A DNA stretch of 64,000 bases from an uncultured Dehalococcoidia bacterium (GTDB lineage Bacteria > Chloroflexota > Dehalococcoidia > DSTF01 > JALHUB01), in contig CAZMGB010000003.1 of assembly GCA_964565775.1 (NCBI GenBank), positions 30,079 to 94,078 of the forward strand, written 5' to 3'. Below the pieces are notes generated by a model. That model was not told the origin of the DNA, ran no database searches, and saw nothing but the letters and a program-made list of their open reading frames with translations. The position numbers and the translations under genes were made by a program. Positions 5,982-36,018 of the stretch are shown here, in pieces (the first letter of the stretch is position 1; each line of letters opens with the position of its first letter).

Positions 5982-5984
5982 ACG

Positions 5985-8403: not shown

Positions 8404-8404
8404 C

Positions 8405-10309: not shown

Positions 10310-10322
10310 CGCTTCCGCACTC

Positions 10323-11186: not shown

Positions 11187-11195
11187 GGCAGCCCC

Positions 11196-17762: not shown

Positions 17763-20700
17763 GTGCGGGGATCTTCCTGCTTGCAAGTGAAAGCGAAGTG
17801 GTTGCATCTACTGGGAGCAGCGGCCGCCCTGGCCGCCGCTGCCCGCGTCTCGCGAGCAGCGCGCGTGTCAGTTGCTGCGCGAAGCGAGCCTCGGCCGACG
17901 ACGAAGGACGCGCCAGCCACGCCCCCTGCGGCGGAGCAACGGCGGAGAGGCCGGTTGCTGCTTCTGGGGCTGGCTCTAGCTCTCGGCCTTACACTCGTCC
18001 TCTCCCCAGTCCTCGCCAACGTTGTCCCTTCGAGCCTACCGGCGCTCCGGCGCGTGGCCGGGCAGCCGGAGTCTGCCCAGGTTGACGGGTCGGAGAGCCC
18101 CCACGGTCCTTTCGACGCCAGCACCGACAAGTGCGCGGCGTGTCACGCCAGCCACACTGCCACAGAGGCGGGACTCCTGACGGGTCGCAACGACGAGGAA
18201 TCTCAGAACCAGATCTGCACCCGCTGTCACGGCCCTGGAGGTGGGGCCGTGCAGGTTTCTACACACTCGAACAAGGGCTATGACGGAGCCACGGAGGCCC
18301 CCTTCTATCAGCTATGTACCGACTGCCACGACCCTCACTCCACGCCCAACGATGAATCGGGCGACAGCGTCAACGACCACCTGATCCTCTCCTCCATCGG
18401 CTCTTTCACGGTGCGCCTGGACGCCCAGTCCGGCGAGGACTCCTATGACGACGGGTTCGACGACGGCGAGCAGGACAGCGTTTGCGTCGCCTGTCACACC
18501 ACCACCAACCACAACACCAACACCAGCACTGAGCTCAGGGGCCAGGGTCACAACCCCGTCGGCACCGACTGCATCTCGTGCCATCCTCACGGCGAGGACC
18601 CGTCGACGCCGAGCGGCTTCATGCCCATCGGAGGAGACTGCCTCGGCTGCCACAGCTCGGCCCAGGGCGACCGCCGCCAGATCGTGGACGACCAGCAGAA
18701 CGGCCAGGGAAACGGCGGCGATTTCGTCCGGGCGTCGCACCACGTGCAGTCGGCGACGGGCACAGTGACCGCGACGGACTGTCTGGTCTGCCACGACATC
18801 TCGCAGCACCAGGGCGGCGATGTCCGCCTGAAGGACCCCGACAGCCCGGAGAGTATCATCGTCTACACCGATGGCGCCTCGCTGGAGAACTTCTGCGTCA
18901 ATTGCCACGACGCCGATGGGGCAGCGCAGGACACGACTCCCTTCAGCGACGGTGTGACGGTGCCCAACGTCAAAGGCCTGTCAGGGAGTACGTGGGCGGA
19001 TTCGGCGCACAAGACCGATGCCGAGAACCCACTGACCTGCTTCGGGGACGGGACGACGGGCTGCCACAGCAACGGCCACGGCTCGAACCTCCGCGCGCTG
19101 CTGGCACCCTACGACGGCTCTCCCGGGGAGGGCAACACCAACGAAGACGAAGGGTTCTGTTACTCCTGCCACGACAGCGACGGGCCCGCCTCCAGCGACG
19201 TTCAGAGTGACTTCGCCAGGCTGTCTCACCACATCGTCGACGGCACGAACGGCACGCAGCTAGAGTGCACCAACTGCCACAACCCTCATACCGCCACGAC
19301 CGCCTCACCGCTCGCCGACCCTGACGCTCCTGCGACGGTGTGGACCGGCGACGAACGTGACTTCTGCCTCCGCTGCCACGATGGTGATCCGCCCTCAACG
19401 GTGGTGTTCCCGGAGAGCGCCGCCGGTACAGGCTGGGACAAGAGCGCCATCGTCGGCACGACTCATGACAGCAGCCTGGGCGGTGTCTGCACCTCCTGCC
19501 ACCAGACGCACGGCGCTGACAACCAGTCACTGCTGATGGGGCAGTACAGCCGGCGCGGCAGCAATTGCGCCGATTGCCATAACCCGCATGGGCAGGATCC
19601 TTCCTACGATCCATCGGAGTACACAGCCTGTTGGCAGTGTCACGATCAGAACCTCGTCGTGCAACAGCCGAACGCCTTTGGCAACAACCACGATGAGCAC
19701 GTCGCAGGCGCCAACACGCCCTGCATCACCTGCCACGATGTCCACGCCCCCTACGACGCCGGAGAGAGCGGCCTCATCGACTTCGGCTGGGCAGACGAGA
19801 ACCGAATCGGCTTCAACTTGTCCTGGGACGGGAACAGCTATGACCTCAGCTCATCCTTCGTCGATAGCGGGGAGAACAAGGGCGAGTGCTACCTGAGCTG
19901 TCACAGCGAGGAGCACGTGCCCGAGGCGTACGAGGGTGTGGAAGTCGACACGACGTTCGGTGGAGCCAGCGCATCCCTACTGGCTCCATCCGTAACGCCT
20001 ACGGCGTCCCTTACGCCCAGCCCGGCAGTCGAAGCCAGTCCGACCCCCACCTCCGTCTTCCCGCCCACGCCGACACCGACACCCACGCCCACGCCGACGG
20101 CGTCGCCCACAGCCACCCTTTCGCCTACGCCATCAGCGACGCCTACTGCCACTCACACCCCTACGCCGACAGCGACAGCGTCGCCCACAGCTCTCGCCAC
20201 GCCGACGGCCTCGCCGTTGCCGGTGCCGGCTCCCGGTCCCGGCCTCCGCCTCGACGGAGACCAGGATCTCTCCGTCCTCGGCGGCGCGCCGGGCGATGGC
20301 GCAGGCTATGCCCTGGCCAGGGGCGATGTCAACGGAGACGGCAGGGGCGATCTGATCATCGGGGCCCGCGACGCCGATGCCGGAGCAAGGATCGACGCCG
20401 GCAAGACCTACGTTATCTTCGGCGCCACCGATCTCCCGCCGACGCTGGATCTATCGGGAGATTCGGTGGGGCTCACCGTCACCGGCCGGGGCGCCGGGGG
20501 CCGCTCCGGAACATCGTTGGCGGCGGCCGACCTGAACGGAGACGGTATCGACGACCTGATAATCGGTGCGCCGGGCGCCGATGCGAACGGCGCGGCGTAC
20601 GGCGGACGAGGCGAAACCTACGTCATCTATGGCGGCGACGATCTGCCCTCGACCATCGACCTCGCGTCCGACTCCGCCGACGTCACCATCTCCGACGGCG

Positions 20701-21932
20701 CTCCGCACGACCTCCTGGGCCATGCCCTGGCGACCGGCGACCTCAACGGCGACGGCCTGGATGACCTGATCGTCGGCGCGCCCTACGCCGACGCCCTGGG
20801 CCGCGGCGGCATCGGCGCGACCTACGTCGTCTTCGGCGCCGACGACCTGCCTTCGCTCGTCGACCTGAGCTCCGCGGCGGACTTCACGCTCTACGGTGAC
20901 GACCCGTACGACCACTCGGGCAGCGCCGTCGCCTCCGCTGACCTCAACGCGGACGGGGTCGACGACCTGATAGTGGGCGCGCCCGCCGCAACAACGTTCG
21001 CTGGCGACGAGGCCGGTGACACGTACGTCCTCTACGGCAACCCCGCCCTGTCGGGCACCTTCGACCTCAGTGGGCGCGCCGCCGACGCGACCATCGCCGG
21101 ACACACCGCCCGCGGGCGCTCCGGCCACGCGCTGGCCGCCGGTGATGTCAACGCCGATGGGCGGGCGGATCTCGTGATCGGAGTGCCTGATGGGGGCGCT
21201 CCGAAGAGGTCCGGCGCCGGGGAAGTCTACATCTTCTACAACGGCAGCCTGCCTCAGGGCAGCCAAGTGAGCGTGAGCGCCGCGAACCTAGCAGTCATGG
21301 GTGACAACACGACTGATCGGGCGGGCTACGCGCTGGCCATCGGCGACGTCAGCGGAGACGGCGTCAGCGACCTCGTTGTGGGGGCACCGGCCGCCGGCGA
21401 GACTTACGTGTTGCGCGGCCGCCCTGACCTTCCCACAGTCCTCGACCTACGCTCTACACCAGCCGATCTGACGGTCTTCGGCGGCCAGAGCGGCGACCGC
21501 TCGGGGTCCGCCCTGGTTGCGGGCGACATCAACGGCGACGGGGCGGGAGACCTTATCATCGGGGCTCCCGGCGCCGACCCGGACGGCCGCGTCGACGCCG
21601 GCGCCGTTCACGCGGTGTATGGCCACGGGGGGGCGGCGCCGGCACCGACGCCTCTGGCGACGGCCACACCCACGCCTCTGGCGACGGCCACACCCACGCC
21701 TGCGCCATCCGCCACCCCAAGCAGCACCCCTTCGCCGACGGACACACCCACGCCTGAGCCAACGATCACACCCACGCTTGCACCGACGAACACATACACG
21801 CCGACGCCGACTGTCACATCGACGCCCACGCCATCCATCACCCCAAGAAGCACCCCTTCGCCGACAGCGAGTCCCTCACCCCCACCGACGGACACGCCAA
21901 TGCCTCCGCCCGTGCCGCCGCCGAGCCCTTAG
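17763..21932 (+). CDS. Giant (1389 aa) cell-surface multihaem cytochrome c fused to a seven-repeat FG-GAP beta-propeller through Pro/Thr-rich linkers
   Basis: N-terminal signal/anchor. About 15 CXXCH motifs plus CX3CH ('CYLSCH'). A PT-rich linker at roughly 19975-20230. Seven FG-GAP repeats ('GDVNGDGRGDLIIGA', 'ADLNGDGIDDLIIGAPGAD', and so on). A C-terminal ~95-aa PT/S-rich tail. Start uncertain (GTG at 17763 or 17787). Confidence 0.85.
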   Translation: MRGSSCLQVKAKWLHLLGAAAALAAAARVSRAARVSVAARSEPRPTTKDAPATPPAAEQRRRGRLLLLGLALALGLTLVLSPVLANVVPSSLPALRRVAGQPESAQVDGSESPHGPFDASTDKCAACHASHTATEAGLLTGRNDEESQNQICTRCHGPGGGAVQVSTHSNKGYDGATEAPFYQLCTDCHDPHSTPNDESGDSVNDHLILSSIGSFTVRLDAQSGEDSYDDGFDDGEQDSVCVACHTTTNHNTNTSTELRGQGHNPVGTDCISCHPHGEDPSTPSGFMPIGGDCLGCHSSAQGDRRQIVDDQQNGQGNGGDFVRASHHVQSATGTVTATDCLVCHDISQHQGGDVRLKDPDSPESIIVYTDGASLENFCVNCHDADGAAQDTTPFSDGVTVPNVKGLSGSTWADSAHKTDAENPLTCFGDGTTGCHSNGHGSNLRALLAPYDGSPGEGNTNEDEGFCYSCHDSDGPASSDVQSDFARLSHHIVDGTNGTQLECTNCHNPHTATTASPLADPDAPATVWTGDERDFCLRCHDGDPPSTVVFPESAAGTGWDKSAIVGTTHDSSLGGVCTSCHQTHGADNQSLLMGQYSRRGSNCADCHNPHGQDPSYDPSEYTACWQCHDQNLVVQQPNAFGNNHDEHVAGANTPCITCHDVHAPYDAGESGLIDFGWADENRIGFNLSWDGNSYDLSSSFVDSGENKGECYLSCHSEEHVPEAYEGVEVDTTFGGASASLLAPSVTPTASLTPSPAVEASPTPTSVFPPTPTPTPTPTPTASPTATLSPTPSATPTATHTPTPTATASPTALATPTASPLPVPAPGPGLRLDGDQDLSVLGGAPGDGAGYALARGDVNGDGRGDLIIGARDADAGARIDAGKTYVIFGATDLPPTLDLSGDSVGLTVTGRGAGGRSGTSLAAADLNGDGIDDLIIGAPGADANGAAYGGRGETYVIYGGDDLPSTIDLASDSADVTISDGAPHDLLGHALATGDLNGDGLDDLIVGAPYADALGRGGIGATYVVFGADDLPSLVDLSSAADFTLYGDDPYDHSGSAVASADLNADGVDDLIVGAPAATTFAGDEAGDTYVLYGNPALSGTFDLSGRAADATIAGHTARGRSGHALAAGDVNADGRADLVIGVPDGGAPKRSGAGEVYIFYNGSLPQGSQVSVSAANLAVMGDNTTDRAGYALAIGDVSGDGVSDLVVGAPAAGETYVLRGRPDLPTVLDLRSTPADLTVFGGQSGDRSGSALVAGDINGDGAGDLIIGAPGADPDGRVDAGAVHAVYGHGGAAPAPTPLATATPTPLATATPTPAPSATPSSTPSPTDTPTPEPTITPTLAPTNTYTPTPTVTSTPTPSITPRSTPSPTASPSPPPTDTPMPPPVPPPSP
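20030..20230 (+). repeat. Low-complexity ACGCC/ACNCC-rich DNA encoding the first Pro/Thr linker
   Basis: Read directly: iterated 'acgcc(g/c)ac' units encoding TPTPTPTPTPTASPTAT... Confidence 0.6.
21648..21695 (+). repeat. Perfect 24-nt tandem duplication (acgcctctggcgacggccacaccc x2) within the C-terminal PT tail
   Basis: Read directly. It encodes TPLATATP twice. Confidence 0.8.
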
Positions 21933-22093: not shown

Positions 22094-22447
22094 CTAGGAG
22101 GGGGAGGCGCTCCCAACGACGGCTGTGAGAAGATCGTCGGAATCGTTGATGGGCACCAGATGCTTGCTGTAGATGCTGACCGTGTCTTCGCTGGGGTGAA
22201 TGAGAATGATCGACAGGTTGGAGCATTCCTCGAGAAGCCGCCAGAGGGCGTTCCGCCCGCCCTGCTCGACGCTGGCCGGCTCGATGAGCACGGCGGCGGG
22301 TTCGCAGCGGCGCAGGCGCTCCCAGGCATCGGGCTCCCCAAGGTCAATGCCAATTACGTCGATGGAGGGCGAATCGCGGAGGAGCGCCTCGAGCCCTTGG
22401 GCCATCAACGAGCTTCCGCGCAGCACCACGACCCTCCGGCGGCTCAT
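22094..22447 (-). CDS. Stand-alone atypical receiver-like (REC) domain protein, paralogue of 4550-4918
   Basis: 'RRVVVLRGSSLMAQGLEALLR' parallels 'KRIAVLYRNSLLAQGLEAALR'. The putative phospho-acceptor position is Glu ('AAVLIEP'). Confidence 0.45.
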   Translation of the reverse strand: MSRRRVVVLRGSSLMAQGLEALLRDSPSIDVIGIDLGEPDAWERLRRCEPAAVLIEPASVEQGGRNALWRLLEECSNLSIILIHPSEDTVSIYSKHLVPINDSDDLLTAVVGSASPS

Positions 22448-22640
22448 GGACGGGCTCCCTCCCTGTCTCCTTTCGCCCGCTGACGTATCCGGGACGAGGC
22501 TAGCACGAGCGCGAGGCCGACACATGCTTCGGCCGAGTCATTTGTTTGAGCTGTTGGATGCAACGGAGCCTGCATCCCGGCACGAACTCGCACCGACGCC
22601 CCCGGAGACCACGGCGCCCTCAGTGCTACCGGCGGGCGCC

Positions 22641-23309
22641 TCAGGTTTGACCGGGAGGGGAAAGGGTGGCGAGACCGGTGCGCACAGCATAGGCCGCAGC
22701 CTGAGCCCGGTTCTGCATCTGAAGCTTCTCCAGGATGTTGTGGAGGTGACGCTTGACTGTGCTCTCAGCGATGCTCAGGGAGAGGCCGATCTCCCGGTTG
22801 CTGCACCCTTCCACTACTAGCTGCAAGACTTCCTTCTCGCGTTCGGTGATGCCGCCCTGCTGAGCCGCCCCTCCCGACCGAGACAGGCGGGCGAATTCTT
22901 GTAGCACCCGCGTTGCCATGTAAGGGGTGAGAGCCGCCTCCCCGCTGAGAACGCCCCGCAGCTTCTCGAAGAGACGCGAGGCCTTCAGGTTCTTGAGGAG
23001 GTAGCCATCAGCCCCGGCCTTTATCGCCTCGAACAGGTCGTCATCAGTCTCAGAGACCGTCAGGATGATGATCCTTGTCTCCGGAAGCGCCTCCTTGATG
23101 CGGCGGGTGGCCTCCAGGCCATTCATGCGCGGCATGTTGATGTCCATAAGGATGAGGTCAGGGCGGTAGGACATGGCGAGGTCCACAGCCTGCTGGCCAT
23201 CGCCGGCTTCGGCCACGACCCGCACGTCATCCTGGGCGGCGAGAAGCTGCGCGACGCCCTCGCGGAACAACACCTGGTCGTCAGCCAGAATCACTCTCGC
23301 TGCTGGCAT
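22641..23309 (-). CDS. NarL/FixJ-family response regulator
   Basis: 'RVILADDQVLFREG', 'LILMDINMP', LuxR HTH 'ITEREKEVLQLVVEGCSNREIG'. Confidence 0.9.
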   Translation of the reverse strand: MPAARVILADDQVLFREGVAQLLAAQDDVRVVAEAGDGQQAVDLAMSYRPDLILMDINMPRMNGLEATRRIKEALPETRIIILTVSETDDDLFEAIKAGADGYLLKNLKASRLFEKLRGVLSGEAALTPYMATRVLQEFARLSRSGGAAQQGGITEREKEVLQLVVEGCSNREIGLSLSIAESTVKRHLHNILEKLQMQNRAQAAAYAVRTGLATLSPPGQT

Positions 23310-25428
23310 TACTCACTCCTCCTTTGCCGCTGCTGGGTATACGCGCGGCGACAGTGGTCCCTGCTCCCGGCGCGGTCTCGATCTCCAGTTCGCCGCCGAT
23401 GCTCTCGACGCGCTCCCGCATGGTCTGAAGGCCGAAGTGCGACCCGCGCTCAGCCAGCGCCTCGTGCAGGTCGAAACCGCGGCCGTCGTCCCATACGGAG
23501 GCGAGCATGTGGCCGTCGACGACCTCCAGGCGTACCAGAGCCCGCCCGGCGCTGGCATGCTTGCGCACGTTGGCCAGCGCCTCCTGGACTATGCGGATGA
23601 GCTGGATCTCCGCCGCCGCCGATATGGGGCCAGGAGCCCCGTCTCCCACCAGTATCTCTGCCTGGATGCCAGTCTCCGCCCTGAACTTCGCCACGTACTC
23701 GACTAGCCCCTGGAGTAGCCCTTGCTCCGCGAAGGCCCTGCTTCGCAGCTCAAGGATGGAAGCACGGACGTCGCCGTAGCCGCTTTCGGCGGCTTCCTCG
23801 ATCTTGTCGAGCTGGCTTCGCAGTCCCGCGAGGTCGCCCCGAGCCAGGAGCTCGGCGGCAAGGCCGACCTTGAGCCCCAGGAAACCCAACACCTGGGCGA
23901 GACTGTCGTGCATCTCCCTGGCGATACGGTCCCGCTCCTCGAGGACGGCCAAACGCTGGGACTCCGCGTAGAGGCGGGCGTTCTCGAGTACCAAAGAGGT
24001 AGCGCTGGCGAGCCGCGAGAGGATCGGGCGGGCCTCCGCCGGAAAAGCTCGCCGGCCGCGGCTGCCCACGAGCAGCAGCCCCTCCCGCCGGCCTCCCGCC
24101 ATCAGGGGCGCCGCCAGGAGCATCCGCAACCGGTCCTGCGCCATGGCGGCGGCGAGCTCGGGCGCCAGCGCCTGGGCTGCCCGCCAGCCCAACTGGGCAG
24201 GCTCGTCCCCGCCTGCGAGACCGCCCCCCACCTCCACAGCGGCCGGAGCGAGACGCAAAGCGGCCAGGCTCTTCATCCCGTCTCCACTGGCCGCCCGCGT
24301 GACCAACTCTTCCATCGGCTCGTCGCGCAGCAAGAGCGCCGCCACGTCGGCCCTGAGGAGCCCCCGCGCGCGCTCCACCACCGTGGACAACACCTCGTCC
24401 AGGGCTGTGAGGGCCGAGACATCAGAAGTGATCTTGTAGAAGGCTTCCAGCTCATCGGTGCGCTCCTCCACCACTCTCTCCAGGCGCTGGTTCCAGCGCT
24501 GGGCCTGTCGGTGAGCCCGAGTCCGCGCCCGAAGCGCCTCCTCTTGCGCTTGCAGGCGCTCGGCCGTCGCTCGACGGAGCTGCCGGTCGCGCTCCAACTC
24601 GAATACGTTCAGGATGCGTACGACGAAGAACGAGACCGCCGCCGCCGAAAGAGCCCAGAGGATCTGGGGCGGAATGGCGGTCCAGGTAGTGAAGGTAGCA
24701 TAGTTGAGGACGGAGGCCGGGGGATAGGGCACGGGCGCCACTACGATCGCGGCGACCACCGCCGTCAGCAGGAAGGCCCCCGCTGCCCAGATCGTTTGCC
24801 GGGCGATGTGAGGCATGTTGAGAGCGCGGAAGCCGGAAGCCTGCGTCGCAAGGCCGGCCGCCGCGATGACCGAGCCAGGCAGGAAGAGGAGGTAGCGCGA
24901 CCAGACACCGGCGCTGGTGAGCCACTCCTTGCTGGCGACTACGTATGATGCCGAGGCCTCCCAATGGCAACCCAGGCACGGGCCGGTGGCCGGGAGGCTT
25001 GCGTCGCTGATGGAGGCGTAGAGGCCGCGCACCTGCGGGACGGCGAAGCTCGCCACCCAGATCCCCATCAGACCCACAGGCACCCAGCGGACCCAGCGCG
25101 CCTCCACCGAGCTTCCTTGCAGAAGGCTCACGCCGAACTGGAGGAGAAAGAGGGCCGAGAGGGAGGAGAGGGCAAACGCCAGAACTCTTGCTCCCATGCT
25201 GCCCTCGACGCTCACCCCGTCGGTCGCGACCAGGAGGAACATTACCACCCACTGGGCCGCACCCTGCAACAAGCCGAACGCCGCGAGGTAGCGAAGGCTG
25301 AGGGCAAGCCTGGTGCTGGAGCGTCGCGCCTCCAACGCCACGGCCAGCCCCATGGCGAAAAAGATCAGGCCGCAGACGAAGAAGAGCGCTATCGTGTTGG
25401 TTTGGCTGAGAGTCATTCCGCTCGGCAC
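23281..25428 (-). CDS. Membrane sensor histidine kinase (multi-TM N-terminal domain with CXXCH haem-c motif, GAF, HisKA_3, HATPase_c)
   Basis: Seven to eight predicted TM helices. 'PATGPCLGCHWEAS' lies in a loop at nt ~24964-24978. A GAF-like region. H-box 'ERDRIAREMHDSLAQVLGFL'. 'GRGFD...GLQTMRER'. Confidence 0.85.
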   Translation of the reverse strand: MPSGMTLSQTNTIALFFVCGLIFFAMGLAVALEARRSSTRLALSLRYLAAFGLLQGAAQWVVMFLLVATDGVSVEGSMGARVLAFALSSLSALFLLQFGVSLLQGSSVEARWVRWVPVGLMGIWVASFAVPQVRGLYASISDASLPATGPCLGCHWEASASYVVASKEWLTSAGVWSRYLLFLPGSVIAAAGLATQASGFRALNMPHIARQTIWAAGAFLLTAVVAAIVVAPVPYPPASVLNYATFTTWTAIPPQILWALSAAAVSFFVVRILNVFELERDRQLRRATAERLQAQEEALRARTRAHRQAQRWNQRLERVVEERTDELEAFYKITSDVSALTALDEVLSTVVERARGLLRADVAALLLRDEPMEELVTRAASGDGMKSLAALRLAPAAVEVGGGLAGGDEPAQLGWRAAQALAPELAAAMAQDRLRMLLAAPLMAGGRREGLLLVGSRGRRAFPAEARPILSRLASATSLVLENARLYAESQRLAVLEERDRIAREMHDSLAQVLGFLGLKVGLAAELLARGDLAGLRSQLDKIEEAAESGYGDVRASILELRSRAFAEQGLLQGLVEYVAKFRAETGIQAEILVGDGAPGPISAAAEIQLIRIVQEALANVRKHASAGRALVRLEVVDGHMLASVWDDGRGFDLHEALAERGSHFGLQTMRERVESIGGELEIETAPGAGTTVAARIPSSGKGGVSNASSESDSG

Positions 25429-25611: not shown

Positions 25612-26271
25612 CTAGGGGTTCAGGTCTATGAGGCCGCTGCGGATGGCGTACTTCACCAGATCGGCGCGCTTGTGCAGGTCCAGCTTGCGCATGAGGCGCG
25701 TGCGGTGGACCTCGACGGTATTGATGCTGATGACCAGACGCTCGGCGATGTCCCGGTTGGAGTGGCCGGCGGCGATCAGCGAAAGCACCTCCCGCTCACG
25801 CGGGGTGAGGCCGTTATAGCTCTGCCGCTCCTCACCCGAGCGGGCCCGCCGCAGGTAGTCGTTGAGGAGCTTTCGGGCCACCGACGGATAGAAATAGGCA
25901 TCGCCGCGACTGGCAGCGCGGATGGCTGTGAAGAGCTCTGAGGGGGCAGCCTCCTTCAACACATAGCCCGAAGCCTCAGCCCCGAGGATCTCGAAGAAGT
26001 ACTCCGGCCTGTCATGGGCGGTGAGGGCCAGCACCTGCACCTCCGGATGTTCGGCGCGGATGCTGCGGGCAACTTCGACACCACCGATTCCGGGCAGCCC
26101 AATGTCCAGCAACACCACATCCGGCGCGAGGGTGGAAACGAGCTCAAGGGCCTCCTCGCCCGTAGACGCCTCCCCCACCACGTCCATGTCTGGCTGTGAT
26201 GCCATGAGAGCCCGGATGCCGGCCCGGAACATCTTATGGTCATCGACCAGGAGGACACGGATGGGCGTCAT
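25612..26271 (-). CDS. NarL/FixJ-family response regulator
   Basis: '[15 protein letters not shown]', 'VVLLDIGLP', LuxR HTH '[22 protein letters not shown]'. Confidence 0.9.
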
Positions 26272-28025
26272 CTCGCCTCAGTCCCATTCTGGAAAGGAAG
26301 CTCTATGTGTAGGCGTGTCCCCTGTTCGGGCCCCGACTGTACATCCATCGTTCCACCGAAGAGGGAGGCGCGTTCCCGCATTCCCAGCAGTCCCAGGCCG
26401 ACCTCGCCCGAGCGCCGACGCCTTAGGCGCGCGATGTCGAAGCCGACGCCATCATCCTCTACATCGGCAATTACGCGCTCGTCCTCCTCCCACAGCCGGA
26501 TGCTCATCGTCTCTGCCCCGGCATGACGAACGGTGTTGTTAACCGCCTCCTGAACGATGCGGAACAGGGCCGTCTCCATCTCCTGGGGCAGGCGGCGCCT
26601 CAGGCCGGTGGCGTCCCAGCGCAGAGTCACGCCGGCCTCCTCAAGGCGTTCGGCTGTGAACGACCGCAGAGCAGGAACAAGGCCCAGGTCATCGAGGGCG
26701 CTGGGCCGCAGGCCGAGCACCGCCTTGCGCACCTCGCTGATGGCCCCGATCATGAGGTTTCGAACCTCGGCTATCTGCTTCCGGGTCTTCGCCCCCGCCC
26801 GAAGCCCCTCCTCAATGGCCCCCAACTGTACAAGGACAGCGGAGAGCGACTGTATGGCTTCATCGTGCAGCTCTCGGGCGATGCGCTTGCGCTCCTCTTC
26901 CTCGGCGGAGATGACTTTGGCCAGCAGCTCGCCGCGCAGGCGCTCCTTCCGCTGCAGCTCCTCGTACAGGAGGGCATTCTCCAGCGCCACGCCGAGCTGG
27001 TTTCCCACGGCACCGAGGAACTCAACCTCCTCCGCGCCAGGGCGCAACCCGGGAGGAAAGGCCAGGACCAGGGCGCCCACGGTGCGGGACTTGGCCGCCA
27101 GAGGCACGCTCACCAGCCACGGCCCACCACCGTCCGCCTCGCCGGTACGGGGGCCGGGTGGAGGGGGCAAACGCTGAGAGACGGGGCGCCGGCTCTGAAT
27201 CGCCTGTTTGGCGATCTCTAGCCTCTCGCCGGCACCATCGGATAGATCGCCCTGGCTCACGCGCAGCGTCGGCTCCTGCCCTGCCGCATCGGCCACGAAG
27301 ACGGCGGCGCCCCTGACGTTGGTCACCTCCAGCAGTGTCGACAGCACGTCGACGAGCATGACATCCGGGTCGAGGGACTGGGACGCCTTCTCGCCGGTGG
27401 AGATCATGATGCGCAGGCCGCGGCTCTGCTCCAGGGCCTCTGCCTCACGCCGTGCCCGCTGGGTGACCTCGCGCCGCTGCTCCGCCGCGAGGTACGCCCC
27501 GAGAAGCCCTACCAGCAAGAAGACAACACCACGCAGAGCCAGCTCGCCTATCTCCAAGACTCCCCCGCCCAGCCACAAGGCTCCGACGTAGCTCAAGAGG
27601 GCTAGACCGATGGTAGAGAGGACGGCCCACAGGGCCAGCGCGGCGGCAGCGAAGAGGACTACGGGCACGTACGTCAAATAGAGTTCAGGGGGTTCGGACT
27701 TGGCCAGTAGCACGACCGCCGAGTTGAAAAGGAGCAGAAGGCCCGTCCAGCCGTAGAACGGCCAGGCGTTGGCAGCGCCTCCCACGGCGCGTCGCCAGGC
27801 CGGCGAGTAGGTGAGAAGGTTGGCCGCCGCAGCCACAGCGAGAAGCCCGGCCAGCCCGCCGAGGTGCAGCGGTCCGTCGTCTCGATGGTCCAGGACGATC
27901 ACCAGGAGCAGCGCGGCAATGGTGATCCAAGCGATGCTGCTGGCCACCGTCGCCAGCCGCAGCCGAAAGGCAGCGTGCAAAGACCGCTCTACGGGCACAA
28001 CGTCATGAGCCAAGACCGTGTCCAT
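26268..28025 (-). CDS. Membrane sensor histidine kinase (multi-TM N-terminus, GAF, HisKA_3, HATPase_c)
   Basis: About six TM helices. A GAF-like domain. H-box '[22 protein letters not shown]'. '[16 protein letters not shown]'. 4-nt overlap with the downstream RR. Confidence 0.85.
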
Positions 28026-28430
28026 TCCGCGGCAGGCCGCACAACATGGCCGGGCACTGCCCCGCGAATCCGAGCGTCACGGGCGCAAGGCCAGGGTGAG
28101 TCCCGCCCTGGATACGCAGAAGCATACAAGAAAGGGTGAATGCCCGTCCAACGCGACATGCAACCAGGATACACCCTCGCCAGTCCACTTGTCGGCCCCT
28201 TCGGACGCTACAGATAAGACACTAGAGAAGGATACTGCCTCCCCTTCCTAGAATAGTCTCTTTGGGTGATAGTCCTTCGATGCACGCGTTCGTATCTTGA
28301 TTGTGACAGACCGATCACGTGGATTGGGCATCTGCCGTCATGGCCCCGCCTCCGATTACCTGACCCGTCCAGTGCCGATGGCCTTCGCCCCGAGCCCTGG
28401 ACATACCATTCACCTAGGAGGGCAGCAGCC
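28026..28430 (+). promoter_or_regulatory. Upstream non-coding region of the ccm operon (lower GC; SD AGGAGG before ccmE)
   Basis: 405-nt gap. 'AGGAGGGCAGCAGCCATGG' is the ribosome-binding site at 28414-28433. Confidence 0.3.
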
Positions 28431-28892
28431 ATGGAATCGTACAGGGTAAGGGCGGAGGAGGCGCCGCCCGCGTCACGCCCTCGCCGTCCACTCTTCATGC
28501 GGGGTCGATTCCTCATCGCCGGGCTGGTTCTTGCGGGCGCCCTCGGATACCTCATCTATGCGGGGGTGCAGAGCGCATCCATGTACTACTTGAGTGTCAG
28601 CGAGCTGACAACCCGAGGCGAAGCAGCCTACACAGAGGATGTCCGCCTGAGCGGGACTGTCATGGAAGGCTCTGTCCTCCAGGACTCCTCCAGTATGATT
28701 GTCGACTTCGTGGTGACGGACGGCCAGAGCTCCTTGCCCGTCCGGTACGAGGGCGTTCTCCCTGACGCCTTCAAGCCGGGCTCCGACGTAGTGGTGGAGG
28801 GGCGGCTCCTGCCCTCCGGGACCTTTCGCGCCTCCACGCTGTTGGCCAAGTGTCCCAGCAAGTACGAGCCAGCCAAGCCAGAGACGAGCTAG
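28431..28892 (+). CDS. ccmE: Cytochrome c maturation haem chaperone CcmE, CXXXY variant
   Basis: N-terminal TM, OB-fold region 'VDFVVTDGQSSLPVRYEGVLPDAFKPGSDVVVEGRL'. 'LAKCPSKYEP' stands in place of the canonical 'LAKHDENYTP' (Cys codon at 28851). Confidence 0.85.
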   Translation: MESYRVRAEEAPPASRPRRPLFMRGRFLIAGLVLAGALGYLIYAGVQSASMYYLSVSELTTRGEAAYTEDVRLSGTVMEGSVLQDSSSMIVDFVVTDGQSSLPVRYEGVLPDAFKPGSDVVVEGRLLPSGTFRASTLLAKCPSKYEPAKPETS

Positions 28893-28910
28893 AGAGGACG
28901 CGCGACCGGA

Positions 28911-30905
28911 GTGGCTGACATCGGGCACGCGGCTCTGCTGGTCGGGCTGATCATGGCCGCCTATGCGGCGGTCAGCTCCCTCGTGGCGGCCCGCTCTGGC
29001 AACGGGGAGTTGTGGCAGAGCGCCCGCAACGGCGCGTTCGCGGCGTTTGCGCTCACGAGCCTGGCTTCCGGGGCGCTCCTGTACGCCCTCTTCACCCACG
29101 ACTTCAGCATCCGATACGTTGCCGAATACTCCAGCTCAAACCTGGCCCCGATATACATCCTTTCCGCATGGTGGGCCGGTCTTGAGGGCTCCCTGCTGCT
29201 CTGGTGCTGGCTGCTGGCGGTGTTTACAGCGCTGGTGCTGCTCCAGACGCAGCGGCAGAACGTTCGACTGGCTCCCTACATCACCGCAACCATGACAGGG
29301 CTCCTAGCCTTCTTCCTGGGCCTCGTGATATTCACCGCCAACCCATTCGAACGGCTTCCCCAGCCCGCCGCCGAAGGCCTGGGCCTGAACCCGCTGCTCG
29401 AAAACCCGGGCATGATCATCCACCCGCCGGCGCTCTACCTCGGGTTCGTAGGCTTCAGCGTCCCCTTCGCCTTCGCCGTAGCCGCGTTGGTCACCGGACG
29501 CGTCGATGACCAGTGGATCCGCTCGAGTCGCCGCTGGACGCTCGTGGCGTGGCTCTTTCTCGGGCTGGGGAACCTGCTCGGCGCGCAGTGGGCATACGTG
29601 GAGCTGGGCTGGGGAGGCTTCTGGGGCTGGGACCCCGTGGAGAACGCCTCCTTCATGCCCTGGCTCACCGGCACGGCATTCCTGCACTCAATCATGATCC
29701 AGCAACGACGGGGAATGCTGAAGGTCTGGAACATGCTCCTCATCATCGCCACCTTCAGCCTCTGTCTGTTCGGGACCATGGTGACCCGAAGCGGCCTCCT
29801 CTCGTCGGTGCACGCGTTCTCGGGCTCCGCCATGGGGCCTCTGCTCATCTTCCTCATCGCCGTGGTGGCACTGGGCTCTCTATGGCTTCTCTGGAAGAGG
29901 CTGCCCTTGCTGCGAAGCGAGGAGCACCTCGACTCGTTCGTCTCCCGCGAGGCCTCCTTCCTTTTCAACAACGTGCTCCTTGTGGGCGCGGCCTTCGCCA
30001 TCTTCTGGGGGACGATCTTCCCCCTGCTTTCTGAGGTGGTGCAGGGAACGCGAAGCACGGTCGGGCCTTCCTTCTTCGAGCAGGTCACGGGGCCGATCTT
30101 CCTGGCGATACTCGTGCTCCTGGGAGTGTGCCCCCGGCTCGGCTGGCGGAAAGCCTCCGCGAGGAATCTGCTTGGCAGCCTTGTCGTGCCGGTAGCGGCC
30201 GGCCTCACGGTCGCTGTCCTGCTGTACGCTCGAGGCCTGCGACCGCTGCACGCGGTGATAGCGTTCGGCGTCTTCGTGTTCGCTGGCACGGTCATCCTCG
30301 CCGAGCTGTACCGGACGCTGCGGCCCCGGCAGGCGACGGGCCCGACGCACTGGCTCTCCACCCTTCCCAGGCTCTTCGCCGCGAATCGGTCTCGCTTCAC
30401 GGCCTTCATTGCCCACGCCGGAGTACTGCTTCTGGCCATGGGTATCCTGGCTTCCATCACATACAGCGAGAGCGTCGAGGCGACGCTGGCGCCGGGGGAG
30501 AGCGCGCGCATCCAGGAGTACGAGCTGACCTTCTTGGGGCTGAGCCAGTCCAACGCGCCCGACCAGACGGTCGTCTCCGCTGAGCTTGCGGTTCAGGACA
30601 ACGGGAAGCCCTCCGGCACCATGACAGCGGAGAAGAACTTCCACCGGACCTACCAGAACCCGGTGACCGAAGTAGGAATCCGTAGCACCCCCATCGAGGA
30701 CCTCTATGTCGTGCTCGGTAACTTGAACGAGGACGGCTCAGCGAGCTTCCGCTTCATCGTCAATCCGCTCGTGATGTGGCTGTGGATCGGTGGCGGAATC
30801 ATCATTGCCGGCACGGCGATCGCCCTCTGGCCCGATCGATACGCGGAGCGGGCCTTCCGCTGGCGCCCAAGAGAGACAGCGGAAATGGAGCTTGGTCGTG
30901 TCTAG
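28911..30905 (+). CDS. ccmF: Cytochrome c-type biogenesis protein CcmF (haem lyase)
   Basis: Multi-TM protein with the WWD domain 'WGGFWGWDPVENASFMPWL'. 664 aa. GTG start. Confidence 0.9.
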   Translation: MADIGHAALLVGLIMAAYAAVSSLVAARSGNGELWQSARNGAFAAFALTSLASGALLYALFTHDFSIRYVAEYSSSNLAPIYILSAWWAGLEGSLLLWCWLLAVFTALVLLQTQRQNVRLAPYITATMTGLLAFFLGLVIFTANPFERLPQPAAEGLGLNPLLENPGMIIHPPALYLGFVGFSVPFAFAVAALVTGRVDDQWIRSSRRWTLVAWLFLGLGNLLGAQWAYVELGWGGFWGWDPVENASFMPWLTGTAFLHSIMIQQRRGMLKVWNMLLIIATFSLCLFGTMVTRSGLLSSVHAFSGSAMGPLLIFLIAVVALGSLWLLWKRLPLLRSEEHLDSFVSREASFLFNNVLLVGAAFAIFWGTIFPLLSEVVQGTRSTVGPSFFEQVTGPIFLAILVLLGVCPRLGWRKASARNLLGSLVVPVAAGLTVAVLLYARGLRPLHAVIAFGVFVFAGTVILAELYRTLRPRQATGPTHWLSTLPRLFAANRSRFTAFIAHAGVLLLAMGILASITYSESVEATLAPGESARIQEYELTFLGLSQSNAPDQTVVSAELAVQDNGKPSGTMTAEKNFHRTYQNPVTEVGIRSTPIEDLYVVLGNLNEDGSASFRFIVNPLVMWLWIGGGIIIAGTAIALWPDRYAERAFRWRPRETAEMELGRV

Positions 30906-31395
30906 ATGGCTGATCGCTCCGCTCGTCCTGGCGCTCCTGTTCGCCCTCGCCCAGCCGGAGACCCCGGTGGCGTACGGCGCGGACCCGACCGATGTGGAGG
31001 CGATAACCTCGGAACTGGTTTGCCCCTGCTCCACCAACCTGTCGGTGGCCGCCTGCCAGAAGTCCATCGAGTGCCCCCTCGCGGCCAAGATGGAGAGCCT
31101 AGCCGACGAGCTCGCCACGTCGGGGATGAGCACCAGAGACGCATTGGACTACTTCGTGGAGATATACGGCGACTCGATCCTCGTATCACCGAGAAAGGAG
31201 GGCTTCGCTCTCTCCGCCTGGGCGGTGCCTTTCATCGGTGTGGGCCTCGGCATCGCCGCCATCTCCTGGCTGTCCTGGAAATGGACCCGCCAGCGACGCG
31301 GCGCGGTCCCCGCGACGTCACAAGGCGACACCGGCGAGCCCGACCTGGCGGCCTACCGCAAGCGCGTGGAGCGAGACCTGGAGCAGCTCGGATGA
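30898..31395 (+). CDS. CcmH/CycL-like cytochrome c biogenesis protein (thiol-redox motif variant LVCPC...C)
   Basis: Signal peptide. 'ELVCPCSTNLSVAACQKSIECP' stands in place of LRCxxC. C-terminal TM anchor. In the canonical position after ccmF. The GTG start overlaps the ccmF stop. Confidence 0.5.
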   Translation: MSRWLIAPLVLALLFALAQPETPVAYGADPTDVEAITSELVCPCSTNLSVAACQKSIECPLAAKMESLADELATSGMSTRDALDYFVEIYGDSILVSPRKEGFALSAWAVPFIGVGLGIAAISWLSWKWTRQRRGAVPATSQGDTGEPDLAAYRKRVERDLEQLG

Positions 31396-31405
31396 GAGGC
31401 AACAG

Positions 31406-31798
31406 ATGGATTCGGTAGCAGCGTTCTTTCTAATGATCGTGGCGTTCGTCGCCATAGGCTACCCCCTGCTGCGACCCGACCACAGCCGCGCCCTGCCCGT
31501 CGATCAGGAAGGGCCGCCGGACGACCTGGAACGTGAGCGCGATGCCGCCTACCGCGCAATTAAGGAGCTGGAGACCGAGCACCGCCTCGGCCACCTCTCG
31601 ACGGAAGACTATGAGGAGCTGCGCGGGCAGTACGTAGAACGGGCCGCCCGCATCCTCAAGCGTCTGGACGCCTCCAGGGCGGCACCGGCCCGCCGCGCCC
31701 GCGCGAAAGCGCCGACCTGCCCGGAGTGCGGGACACGGGGGCATCGACGCGACCGCTTCTGCGGCGCCTGCGGCCACGTGTTGAGGGTAGCGTCATGA
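31406..31798 (+). CDS. Small membrane protein with N-terminal TM helix and C-terminal zinc ribbon (CPECG...CGACG)
   Basis: 'FFLMIVAFVAIGYPLL' TM helix. Two CxxC pairs at the C-terminus. Embedded in the ccm operon. Same architecture class as 3253-4155. Confidence 0.5.
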   Translation: MDSVAAFFLMIVAFVAIGYPLLRPDHSRALPVDQEGPPDDLERERDAAYRAIKELETEHRLGHLSTEDYEELRGQYVERAARILKRLDASRAAPARRARAKAPTCPECGTRGHRRDRFCGACGHVLRVAS

Positions 31799-32850
31799 AG
31801 CGTTGGCTACCGGCGATTGGAGCACTGCTGCTACTCATGCTCGCGCAGGTGCCGGGGGCGGCCGCCGAGGACGGGGAGACGGGCAGCATCGCGGGCCGCG
31901 TGCTCGACGGCACACAGGGGGGAACCCCGGTCGCCGGCCAGGACGTGGTGCTCCAGGGGGTGCGCCACAGCGACGAGGCGACCATCCTTCCCGTGCAGGT
32001 TACGCAGACCGACCCCCAAGGTAACTTCCGTTTCGACGGACTGCCGGTTTCGGAGGAGAACTCATTCCTGGTCTTCGTGACGTACGACAACGTCGAGTAC
32101 GGAAGCAAAGACGTCAAGCTCACCGCGGAAGAGCCCTCGGCGGACCTCGAGATGGAGGTATACGGATCCACGACCGCCGACGACCAGATCCGCGTGTCCC
32201 TGGACCACATCGTGATCGAGGCCGACGCCCAGGCCCAGGTGCTTAGCGTCCTCGAGGTGTTCCAAGTGCTGAACGAGGGCGACCGCGCCTATGTCGGCGA
32301 GAGCGACAACACCGACAGTTCCCCTACCCTCCAGTTGTCTCTACCGGAGGGCGCCACGCAGGTGAGCGTGATAAGCGGGGTGACGTCTCAGAACCTGGTG
32401 CCATCAGCGGCAGGCCTAGCCGACACCACGCCCGTAGTACCGGGAGAGAAGGAGGTCGCCCTGGGCTATGAGCTCCCATACGCTGAGTCCGAGCTGCTCC
32501 TGCAGAAGACTCTCTACTACCCGACGGACAGGCTTGCGATCCTGGTCCAGGACGCTGGCTTCACCATCGACAGCCCGGCGCTCTCGGCGCCCCAACCCAC
32601 GGACATGGGCGAGGAACGCTACCTCCTTCTGACCGGCGAGTCGCTGGCGGCGGGCCAGAGCATCGAAGTGTCGCTCAGTGACCTGCCCACCGCAAGCTCG
32701 AGCGGGGGTCGGCCCGACGTTCTCTGGCCGCTCATGGGCGCAGGCCTGGCGGTGGCCCTCGGCATGGCGGTGCTCTACCCTCGCCTGCGCCGACGCCTGC
32801 GACGGCCGGAGAGCGACGAGCAGCACTGGGCATCGGGGGACCAGCCGTGA
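31795..32850 (+). CDS. Secreted protein with CarboxypepD_reg-like N-terminal domain and C-terminal TM anchor, hypothetical
   Basis: Signal peptide 'MKRWLPAIGALLLLMLAQVPGAAA'. 'GSIAGRVLDGTQGGTPVAGQDVVLQG...TDPQGNFRFDGLP'. C-terminal 'LWPLMGAGLAVALGMAVLY'. ATGA overlap with the upstream gene. Confidence 0.55.
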   Translation: MKRWLPAIGALLLLMLAQVPGAAAEDGETGSIAGRVLDGTQGGTPVAGQDVVLQGVRHSDEATILPVQVTQTDPQGNFRFDGLPVSEENSFLVFVTYDNVEYGSKDVKLTAEEPSADLEMEVYGSTTADDQIRVSLDHIVIEADAQAQVLSVLEVFQVLNEGDRAYVGESDNTDSSPTLQLSLPEGATQVSVISGVTSQNLVPSAAGLADTTPVVPGEKEVALGYELPYAESELLLQKTLYYPTDRLAILVQDAGFTIDSPALSAPQPTDMGEERYLLLTGESLAAGQSIEVSLSDLPTASSSGGRPDVLWPLMGAGLAVALGMAVLYPRLRRRLRRPESDEQHWASGDQP

Positions 32851-33626
32851 GCGGGCCGACGACCGGCCGCGTTCGAAGCGGGGCAGCGCTGGGGCCGGCG
32901 CCGGGACTCCCGGCCGCGGCGGCGATTGAGGTAGACCGCTTGCACAAGACGTTCGGCCACCTGGCCGTCCTGCGGGGCCTGGACCTGCGAGTTCGGTCGG
33001 GCGAGCGCCTTCTCCTGGTAGGCCCCAACGGCTCGGGGAAGACGACGCTCCTCAAGATCCTGGCGACACTGATCCGCCCCAGCGGTGGTCGCGTCCGTGT
33101 TTGCGGCTTTGACGTCCGCCGGGACGCGGCCGCCGTTCGCCGCTGCGTGGGCGTCCTTTCCCACCAGACCTACCTCTACGGGGAGCTCACTGCCCTCGAG
33201 AACCTGAGCTTCTACAGAGACATGTACGGTATATCGAACGGACATCAGCGGCTCCCAGACCTACTTCGTCAGGTTGGACTGGAGCGGCGGGCGCACGTCC
33301 AGGTGCGGACACTCTCCCGAGGCATGCAGCAGCGGCTGGCCCTGGCGCGGGCGCTGCTCCACCGGCCGCCGGTTCTCCTCCTGGACGAACCGGACACCGG
33401 ACTCGACCAGAAGGCCGCTGCTATGCTCGGCGACCTGCTCTCGGCGGTAGCCGCCGAGGGCCGCACGACGGTACTCACCAGCCACAACCTGGAGCGGGGC
33501 CTGGCCCTGGCCGACCGGGTCGCTGTGTTGGCAGGCGGCCGCATCACGTTCGAGGCCGCGAAGGAAGAGCTCCATGCTGGAGACCTGGAGAAGGTTTACC
33601 ATCGCCTTGCCCGTGCCGCGGGCTGA
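32847..33626 (+). CDS. ccmA: Haem exporter ATP-binding protein CcmA (ABC ATPase)
   Basis: Walker A 'GPNGSGKTT'. ABC signature 'LSRGMQQRLALARAL'. Walker B 'LLLDEP'. Confidence 0.85.
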   Translation: MSGPTTGRVRSGAALGPAPGLPAAAAIEVDRLHKTFGHLAVLRGLDLRVRSGERLLLVGPNGSGKTTLLKILATLIRPSGGRVRVCGFDVRRDAAAVRRCVGVLSHQTYLYGELTALENLSFYRDMYGISNGHQRLPDLLRQVGLERRAHVQVRTLSRGMQQRLALARALLHRPPVLLLDEPDTGLDQKAAAMLGDLLSAVAAEGRTTVLTSHNLERGLALADRVAVLAGGRITFEAAKEELHAGDLEKVYHRLARAAG

Positions 33627-34317
33627 CCCGGCGCTGGTCGCGTACCTACGCCAGATAGCGGCGCTGGCCGCCAAGGACATCCGGTCCGAGCTGAGAAGCC
33701 GCCAGGTCGTCGGCACGACCGTGGTCTTCGCTTTGATGATCCTAGTCATCTTCAACTTCGCCTTCGACCTCGAGCGCTCGCAGATGGACAGGCTGGCCCC
33801 GCCCATGCTCTGGGTCGCCGTCACGCTGGCCGCCGTCCTCGGGCTGAACCACGTCTTTGGCAAAGAGAAGGAACAGGCGTCGCTGGAGGGCATCCTCCTG
33901 TGCCCGGCAGACCGCGGCGCGATCTACTTCGGCAAGCTGCTGGGGGCCCTTACCTTCACCACGGCCATGGAGGCAGCGGTCCTGCCCATCTTCGTAGTCT
34001 TCACCGACCAATCGATGTTCTCGGTAGGGCCGTTGCTGGCGCTTCTGCTGGGAACCGTGGGCTTTCTTGCCGTGGGCACTCTCTTCGCCGCCGTCAGCAG
34101 CAATGCGAGGACCCGCGAGATCCTCCTGCCCATCCTGCTCTTCCCCATCGCGACGCCGATCCTGGTGGCAGGGGTCGAGGTGACAGGCATGGGTCTGAGA
34201 GGAGAACCGTTCAGCGAGTTGGCCGGCTGGTTGGGGCTGCTGGCCGCCTTCGACCTCGTGTTCCTGGTTCTCTGCCCCATGCTGTTTGAGTACGTCGTGG
34301 AGGAGATGAGCCCCTGA
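33574..34317 (+). CDS. ccmB: Haem exporter protein CcmB (ABC permease); start uncertain (33574 or GTG 33613)
   Basis: Six TM helices. Position and size match CcmB. Overlaps the ccmA 3' end. Confidence 0.75.
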   Translation: MLETWRRFTIALPVPRADPALVAYLRQIAALAAKDIRSELRSRQVVGTTVVFALMILVIFNFAFDLERSQMDRLAPPMLWVAVTLAAVLGLNHVFGKEKEQASLEGILLCPADRGAIYFGKLLGALTFTTAMEAAVLPIFVVFTDQSMFSVGPLLALLLGTVGFLAVGTLFAAVSSNARTREILLPILLFPIATPILVAGVEVTGMGLRGEPFSELAGWLGLLAAFDLVFLVLCPMLFEYVVEEMSP

Positions 34318-34336
34318 GCGGCCCTGGCTAGGAGGG

Positions 34337-35077
34337 ATGTCGAGTATGATTTCATCGCATGCAACGAGCGTCCGCAGCCATGCGACGCTTGAGCGCGTTC
34401 AGCCCTGGCTTCTGGCGGCGTCATGCCTGTCCATCCTCGTGGCGCTCTATGCCGCTTTCGTCTACGCCCCTGAGGAAGCCACGATGGGACAAGTGCAGCG
34501 CATCTTCTACTTTCACGTGCCGGCCGCGTGGGTCGCTTTCCTGGCGTACTTCGGGGTCTTCGTCGCCGGGATTGGCTATCTGAAGACACGGCGGATGGGG
34601 TGGGACATCGTGGCCCGCTCCTCCGCCGAGATCGGCGTGCTTTTCACCACGCTCGCCCTGATCACGGGCTCTCTCTGGGCCAAGCCTGTCTGGGGCACTT
34701 GGTGGACGTGGGACCCGCGCCTCACCACCACGCTGGTGCTCTGGCTGATCTACGTGTCCTATCTCCTCCTGCGAAGCGCGCTCCCGGAGCCGGAGCGGCG
34801 TGCGGCCTTCGCCTCTGTGGTCGGCATCGTCGGATTCGTCGACGTGCCGATCGTATTCGGCTCGATACGGTGGTGGCGCACGATCCACCCCGTTGTCATG
34901 GACACCGGCGGCTTCGACCTGGCGCGTCCGATGCTCGTGGCGCTACTCGTGGCCCTGTCAGCATTCACCATCCTGTACCTGGCTCTCCTCTCGGTTCGCA
35001 TATCCCTGGAGCGCAGCAAGGAGGACCTGGAGCGGCTGAGGTACAAGGTGGGTCTCTACGAAGAAGAGGGGGTGTGA
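34337..35077 (+). CDS. ccmC: Haem exporter protein CcmC
   Basis: WWD motif 'WGTWWTWDPRLT'. 'YFHVPAAW'. Multi-TM. Confidence 0.85.
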   Translation: MSSMISSHATSVRSHATLERVQPWLLAASCLSILVALYAAFVYAPEEATMGQVQRIFYFHVPAAWVAFLAYFGVFVAGIGYLKTRRMGWDIVARSSAEIGVLFTTLALITGSLWAKPVWGTWWTWDPRLTTTLVLWLIYVSYLLLRSALPEPERRAAFASVVGIVGFVDVPIVFGSIRWWRTIHPVVMDTGGFDLARPMLVALLVALSAFTILYLALLSVRISLERSKEDLERLRYKVGLYEEEGV

Positions 35078-35079
35078 GG

Positions 35080-35328
35080 ATGGACAGCATTTGGTATCTG
35101 ACTCTGGCGTACGCCGTCATCTGGGTGGGCCTGTTCGCCTACCTGCTCAACCTAGCTCGGGAAGGACGGAGCATCCGCCAACAGATGGACCTACTGCGAG
35201 ACCTCGTCGATGGGAGCGGCATCGCATCCGAGATGGAGCTTCCAGCGGCGGAGACGTGGGAACAACAGCCGGAACCGACGACGACTGCCGCAAGACTCGG
35301 CGACGGCTGGCCGGCTCTGGAGCGCTGA
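35080..35328 (+). CDS. ccmD: Haem exporter protein CcmD (small single-TM)
   Basis: 'MDSIWYLTLAYAVIWVGLFAYLL'. 82 aa. Sits between ccmC and ccmG. Confidence 0.6.
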   Translation: MDSIWYLTLAYAVIWVGLFAYLLNLAREGRSIRQQMDLLRDLVDGSGIASEMELPAAETWEQQPEPTTTAARLGDGWPALER

Positions 35329-35329
35329 C

Positions 35330-35947: not shown

Positions 35948-36018
35948 GCCCGGCAGTCGACGCACCGGGATGGGGGCTGGCCTTCGGGGCGGGGCTGATC
36001 TCCTCGCTGAGTCCCTGT

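Follow-up and report, generated by a model that had tools for sequence, protein, structure and literature searches.

A sensor histidine kinase that probably carries covalently attached haem c in an extracytoplasmic loop of its membrane domain could be identified in a genome segment of an uncultured Dehalococcoidia bacterium (assembly GCA_964565775.1). The analysed window is the whole 64,000-nucleotide stretch of contig CAZMGB010000003.1 from position 30,079 to 94,078 of the forward strand. The kinase gene lies on its complementary strand (23281..25428, minus strand) and encodes 715 amino acids (aa) with a C-x-x-C-H (CXXCH) motif in a loop of an N-terminal seven-transmembrane (7TM) domain. Sequence analysis supported the reading of this loop as a haem-c sensor, with the motif being real and non-random, and the kinase probably uses the covalent haem as a sensor of redox state or of a gas and thereby regulates respiratory cytochromes. 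The explanation favoured overall, with moderate confidence, is that the haem c would be attached by the Ccm system, that its redox state would drive signalling to the response regulator, and that the neighbouring cytochrome genes would come under the control of this pair.

Domain layout and predicted topology of the kinase

The open reading frame (ORF) list and Pfam matches agreed with an earlier note made from the DNA sequence, which had described a 715-aa HisKA_3 kinase with a GAF-like domain and kinase core downstream of the membrane domain. Translation from a GTG start gave a 7TM sensor domain (aa 1-275; 24604..25428), a coiled coil, a GAF domain (aa 343-483; 23980..24402), a HisKA_3 dimerisation and phospho-acceptor domain (aa 498-564; 23737..23937; PF07730, E 8.9e-15) and a HATPase_c catalytic domain (aa 607-699; 23332..23610; PF02518, E 5e-14), all on the minus strand. 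A wrong start codon was considered unlikely, since the alignment with the closest relative, P0012 (82% identity), already begins at residue 5 of the window kinase. P0012 also contains the GAF domain, which is absent from most relatives. In the first alignment of relatives, the H-box His507 was nearly invariant, and the N and G boxes were conserved. The kinase gene is followed by a gene for a cognate NarL/LuxR-type response regulator (22641..23309, minus strand; Response_reg 1e-30, GerE 7e-18), the ORF of which overlaps the kinase stop. Every element of a HisKA_3/NarL-type two-component system was therefore present, namely HisKA_3 with its phospho-acceptor histidine, HATPase_c, and an adjacent REC and GerE/LuxR regulator.

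The haem-binding motif had been placed by the earlier note at about nucleotides 24964-24978, in a loop between helices, and the sequence CLGCH was found exactly there (aa 151-155; 24964..24978, minus strand). C151, C154 and H155 form a candidate covalent haem-c attachment site. The protein contains only three cysteines (C19, C151 and C154), two of which belong to CLGCH, its sole CXXCH. The number of such motifs expected by chance was approximately 0.001 per 715 aa at the composition of the non-cytochrome proteins of the window, and approximately 1e-4 by analytic expectation from the composition of the kinase itself. None of the 36 other non-cytochrome proteins of the window contained a CXXCH.

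The N-terminal domain belongs to a large unannotated family. Residues 1-300 gave no Pfam match even at E<=5, including none to Cache, PAS or DUF3365, and a profile of the domain gave no meaningful match against PDB sequences. NCBIfam matches (NarQ, UhpB, LiaS) covered only the kinase core and were all below the family cut-offs, leaving the N-terminal domain without a match. Likewise, the domain matched none of the Pfam or NCBIfam profiles of described membrane sensor domains (MASE, 7TMR-DISM, HisKA_7TM, 5TMR-LYT and similar).

Hydropathy analysis revealed seven helices (aa 11-32, 47-69, 82-104, 116-133, 179-199, 213-233 and 256-274). AlphaFold2, run on a 102-sequence alignment, produced a confident seven-helix bundle with a mean pLDDT of 88.6 and a pTM of 0.88, in which TM7 runs on into a long cytoplasmic helix. 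Of the seven to eight helices proposed earlier, seven could thus be retained by both methods and the eighth could not. The domain could be structurally superposed on 7TM receptors, as expected of a G protein-coupled receptor (GPCR)-like fold. Three transmembrane (TM) helices separate the loop at 134-178 from the kinase core; because this core must be cytoplasmic, the TM4-TM5 loop is placed outside. Across the motif-bearing clade, lysine plus arginine reached densities of 0.24, 0.24 and 0.14 per residue in the three loops predicted to lie inside; for the N-terminus and the three loops predicted to lie outside, the values were 0.02-0.09. This agrees with an outside N-terminus and an inside C-terminus. 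Helix parity, the positive-inside rule and the AlphaFold2 model thus all predicted an extracytoplasmic position for the CXXCH loop, and none of them put it in the cytoplasm, where Ccm cannot act.

Conservation of the motif and its insertion

Relatives were gathered by a one-genome-per-species scan, which yielded 230 relatives (loci were fetched for 80 of the 230), and by an exhaustive profile search, which yielded 2,711 cluster representatives at E<=1e-3. The 7TM scaffold is therefore a large family, and it has neither a Pfam or NCBIfam model nor a PDB sequence match. Residues H55, E59, W60, R178, Y179 and N242 are nearly invariant in it. The pooled set comprised 239 non-redundant family domains with 74,818 residues.

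In the first database search, all five relatives at 51-98% identity kept the C-x-x-C-H, and a group at 31-34% identity was without it. The scan revealed CXXCH at the equivalent place in 23 of the 26 closest relatives, and the loop motif was present in 16 of the best 150 profile-search representatives, which were the ones checked for it. In the pooled set, 43 of the 239 domains contained CXXCH in the TM4-TM5 loop. Motif-bearing relatives were distributed among Chloroflexota, Armatimonadota (including Fervidifonticultor and Nitrosymbiomonas) and unclassified metagenome-assembled genomes (MAGs), and those closest to the window kinase were Chloroflexota MAGs. C151, C154 and H155 were invariant in all 42 sequences that could be aligned column for column, and two later database matches (P0177 and P0178) likewise carried the motif at the equivalent place; the Cys and His residues are thus conserved in the homologues, as the earlier note required of a haem site.

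The motif sits in a clade-specific insertion of 25-35 aa (aa ~131-170 of the window kinase; 24919..25038, minus strand), which is missing as a block from approximately 190 other family members. Within this insertion only the C, C and H are fixed, while length and sequence vary widely. Fixed residues in an otherwise variable segment are, at the level of sequence, the pattern expected of a haem-c site and not of a structural element. Within the motif-bearing set, identity to the window kinase across the scaffold drops to approximately 42%. A chance occurrence of CXXCH was excluded by this conservation. That the motif might be an accident or a neutral, functionless relic is scarcely credible, given an expected count of 1e-3 to 1e-4 per protein and invariance across scaffolds only ~42% identical, inside an insertion that is otherwise unconstrained.

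A second insertion was observed on the same scaffold. Four relatives (P0056, P0093, P0107 and L030, the last from a Dehalococcoidia MAG) are without the TM4-TM5 insertion and have instead a separate insertion, approximately 30 aa long and containing N-C-F-x-C-H, in another loop predicted to lie outside, between TM2 and TM3. These four formed their own group in a neighbour-joining tree. All 47 CXXCH motifs in the 239 family domains were confined to the two predicted outside loops, with none elsewhere. The presence of CXXCH insertions in two different outside loops of the scaffold suggests that haem on the outer face has been selected for. The P0093 gene lies directly after a CcmB gene. The 7TM kinase genes with the NCFxCH insertion at L030 (4633-6282) and L081 (10001-12206) represent a small Dehalococcoidia-type subgroup; the L081 gene comes after a CcmB gene and seems to be split into parts of 332 aa and 375 aa.

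The same data bear on the possibility that the CXXCH is haem-free and serves as an extracytoplasmic thiol/disulfide switch or as a Cys2His metal site. CXXC motifs are able to form redox-active disulfides and can also bind metals (Cu, Zn or Fe), and a thioredoxin-like protein and CcdA are encoded near the kinase. A disulfide switch would not need the histidine after the second cysteine, however, and this residue, which marks the haem-c signature, is invariant in 42 of 42 sequences. In the independent second insertion, too, the motif is CXXCH and not CXXC. Moreover, c-type cytochromes are encoded in almost all loci of sufficient length, which implies a maturation system by which any exported CXXCH would be processed. 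A haem-free site was thus regarded as quite improbable. The window kinase combines four features expected of a haem-c attachment site: the motif, its predicted extracytoplasmic exposure, conservation of C, C and H in homologues, and a Ccm system in the genome.

Gene neighbourhood and the candidate signal

A recurrent gene order could be observed in at least 18 loci from two phyla, consisting of the 7TM-CXXCH kinase, a LuxR-type regulator, in some cases the small ORF orf143, a cytochrome with 7-11 CXXCH, and a cytochrome b; a second kinase and regulator often come next. In all syntenic loci listed, the 7TM kinase gene is followed by the regulator gene. Among the 16 clade loci of 12 kb or more, 15 encoded a cytochrome with four or more CXXCH inside the fetched segment. 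Since 18 of 30 loci around motif-less family members encoded such cytochromes as well, the whole 7TM family seems to be tied to cytochrome clusters.

In the window, the minus-strand gene run consists of a TM-GAF kinase, its regulator, the 7TM kinase, its regulator and orf143. The upstream pair (25612..28025) was assigned by Pfam as a TM-GAF-HisKA_3 kinase (26268-28025) and a LuxR-type regulator (25612-26271). Such a tandem of two kinase-regulator pairs was also found in L004, L019, L020 and L023, and an upstream kinase and regulator pair was found in L005, L011, L014, L016 and L025. The small conserved orf143 (22094..22525, minus strand) follows the regulator and gave no family match; homologues occupy the matching position in L002, L003, L005, L013 and L022. 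On visual inspection, the sequence of orf143 looks similar to a receiver domain in which Glu replaces the phospho-acceptor Asp.

Two modules of a multihaem cytochrome with a cytochrome b are encoded in the left part of the window, together with further multihaem cytochromes. One pair (10323..12434, minus strand) comprises a nine-CXXCH cytochrome (11196-12434) and an FdnI/HydC-type, putatively dihaem cytochrome b with a Ni_hydr_CYTB domain (10323-11186), for which all NCBIfam matches were below cut-off; a module of this kind is what accompanies the CXXCH kinases in other genomes. The other (5172..6998, plus strand) comprises a five-CXXCH cytochrome (5172-5981) and a cytochrome b (5985-6998). 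Convergent with the kinase operon is a gene for a 1,389-aa cytochrome (17763..21932, plus strand) with 15 CXXCH, seven FG-GAP repeats and long Pro/Thr-rich linkers, a composition which suggests a cell-surface multihaem cytochrome.

The other two kinases had been said to be without CXXCH, with only a CxxC in the one designated HK1, and this was borne out. HK1 is a dCache-HAMP-HisKA_3 kinase (8405-10360, minus strand), which together with its LuxR-type regulator (7753-8439, minus strand) spans 7753..10360. It reads S-C-R-N-C-R, with C-R-N-C-R at aa 261-265 (9566-9580, minus strand). Orthologues of this dCache kinase in the syntenic loci L002, L003, L013 and L022 have T-C-H-x-C-H inside the periplasmic Cache domain, and smaller Armatimonadota counterparts have E-C-x-x-C-H. 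The CxxC of HK1 therefore looks like a degenerate form of a CXXCH haem-c site, in which His has been replaced by Arg. In other genomes, both kinases flanking the cytochrome module would be haem-c candidates by their sequences.

Divergent from the kinase operon lies a Ccm System I cluster (28266..36669, plus strand), as the earlier note had reported. It encodes CcmE, CcmF, CcmH, orf374, CcmA, CcmB, CcmC, a thioredoxin-like protein and CcdA, in this unusual order; CcmD was not recognised in the cluster. The CcmE ORF has an N-terminal extension of approximately 100 aa ahead of the CcmE domain. The 374-aa orf374 (31726-32850, plus strand), between CcmH and CcmA, contains a weak CarboxypepD_reg-like domain below the Pfam cut-off, and its homologues are found together with ccm genes or with the kinase operon in L005, L020, L023 and L024. 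System I requires little beyond an exported CXXCH.

This proximity raises the possibility that the kinase reports on maturation, with the apo or holo state of the loop reflecting haem supply and Ccm capacity relative to cytochrome production, and with ccm and cytochrome genes as targets. The divergent arrangement in the window would fit such a role, as would the Ccm genes beside family members in L020, L023, L024, L075 and L081 (ccmC, ccmE and ccmF, with an orf374 homologue, lie upstream in L020 and L023) and the ccm-linked orf374 that follows the kinase operon in L005. Most clade loci, however, are without Ccm genes within 10 kb, and the scheme would require a persisting pool of apo-protein. 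To our knowledge, a maturation-state sensor has no precedent, and we regard this role as remote. Both it and the haem-free thiol or metal site were judged less likely than gas sensing, which is considered below.

In the favoured redox mechanism, a polytopic kinase with a seven-helix sensor domain would have acquired the short CXXCH insertion in its TM4-TM5 loop, on the outward-facing side of the membrane. The neighbouring Ccm System I would link haem c covalently to C151 and C154, H155 would act as its proximal ligand, and the haem would pack against the helix bundle from the outside. Either the extracytoplasmic cytochrome pool or the ambient potential would determine whether this haem is oxidised or reduced, and a change in that state would shift TM4 and TM5. 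The shift would then travel by way of TM7, coiled coil and GAF domain to the HisKA_3 core and alter phosphorylation of the adjacent NarL/LuxR-type regulator. The regulator would in turn tune nearby genes, including the quinol-oxidoreductase-like module of multihaem cytochrome and cytochrome b, other multihaem cytochromes and possibly ccm. Redox state is favoured as the signal on the ground that the linkage to electron-transfer modules is conserved.

The main alternative is that haem c is attached but senses NO, CO or O2, which would bind at a distal position that is either open or can be vacated. The insertion contains no invariant distal ligand and the window kinase is without H132, both of which would suit a gas-binding haem. 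In addition, sCache_heme domains fused to signalling modules act as NO sensors (PMC12889525), and the window encodes a quinol-type nitric oxide reductase, a NorB with a fused cytochrome c-like domain (47217-49523, minus strand). This gene is 22 kb away, past unrelated genes, however, and the conserved neighbours of the kinase are multihaem cytochromes, cytochrome b and Ccm genes and not NO-detoxification genes. M63 could also provide His/Met ligation. Both M63 and Y243 (98% in the clade compared with 29% elsewhere) are more frequent in the clade than outside it and are located near the outer face; either could serve as the distal ligand, or the haem could be five-coordinate. Gas sensing was considered unlikely.

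Several observations weigh against the redox-sensor reading. The insertion was modelled with low confidence (pLDDT 53-64), which would be unsurprising if the loop folds around a cofactor absent from the model, although other causes are possible. No invariant distal ligand could be found: H132, of a P-H motif at the outer end of TM4, occurs in 28 of 42 clade members and is Gln in the window kinase, and M63 is present in 90% of the clade but also in 49% of sequences outside it. The window kinase further has Gln at the family-wide H55 and E59 and may therefore be atypical. Motif-bearing sequences formed three pure groups (31, 10 and 2 sequences) and not one in the crude neighbour-joining tree, so that strict monophyly was not obtained. 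All relatives come from metagenome-assembled genomes. Synteny is the sole basis of the proposed regulon, and in the 10-member subclade of the window kinase the multihaem cytochrome and cytochrome b pair is not always adjacent (L004, L005).

The region of approximately 37 kb that holds the cytochrome, Ccm and kinase genes has a phage-integrase-family gene at its left edge (7-660, plus strand); a mobile island is a possible reading of this region. Rightwards from 38 kb, the window contains genes for a cysteine synthase-like protein, acetyl-CoA synthetase, the NO reductase and glycogen/trehalose enzymes.

Comparison with known sensor kinases

The HisKA_3 and HATPase_c core together with a multi-helix membrane sensor domain is also found in UhpB (with MASE1), DesK and ComP. 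The window kinase shares the kinase core with these proteins and has no similarity to them in the membrane domain. The Corynebacterium kinases HrrS and ChrS signal to NarL/LuxR-type regulators. Like the window kinase, they are polytopic membrane kinases, and their membrane domain interacts with haem; they differ in having six TM helices, free haem as a non-covalent ligand and no CXXCH (PMC5812335). No polytopic kinase with a haem-c loop was found described in full-text literature searches.

The cytochrome modules beside the kinase resemble, in architecture only, those of Geobacter CbcL and CbcBA, in which a dihaem cytochrome b and a multihaem cytochrome c are encoded beside dedicated regulators. 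Geobacter cbcBA is induced as the potential falls, and its expression follows redox potential through BccR, a sigma-54-dependent regulator; no sensor is named in that study (10.1101/2021.04.15.440034). How mineral- or electrode-respiring bacteria sense potential and choose among their membrane quinol oxidoreductases is a standing question, which becomes testable with the present candidate. The sensor in question could be a kinase of the present type, which would bear haem c on the outside and whose gene neighbours such modules in two phyla. A wider proposal, possible but tentative, is that the scaffold represents an undescribed GPCR-like seven-helix family dedicated to monitoring extracytoplasmic electron transfer, in which haem c would have been gained at least twice in different loops, giving a direct potentiometric sensor that sets the expression of a Cbc-like quinol oxidoreductase and multihaem cytochromes in Chloroflexota and Armatimonadota. 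The analysis in any case defines a sensor family of at least 2,700 sequence clusters that was missed by domain databases.

Haem-c sensors have been established in Cache/PAS-like periplasmic domains (PMC12889525, PMC3831638). Geobacter GSU0582 and GSU0935 and the sCache_heme/DUF3365/Tll0287 group likewise have one extracytoplasmic CXXCH haem-c site feeding kinases or chemoreceptors (PMC12889525, PMC3831638). These sensors have soluble Cache/PAS-like folds between two TM helices, whereas the site of the window kinase lies in a loop of a seven-helix membrane bundle; membership of sCache_heme could be ruled out, as aa 1-300 form this bundle and no Cache fold is present. The likeness to sCache_heme lies in the arrival of the motif as a short insertion into an existing sensor scaffold. 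In sCache_heme, insertion of a CXXCH fragment into a sensor scaffold gives working haem-c sensors, which the preprint calls the first example of such an insertion, and the group is described as rare or absent in Chloroflexota (PMC12889525). Judged by its sequence, the 7TM kinase would be another product of fragment insertion, with a scaffold that is unrelated and embedded in the membrane and in phyla for which sCache_heme has been described as rare or absent, and, if true, would provide a further, independent case of a sensor that evolved by insertion of a minimal haem-binding fragment.

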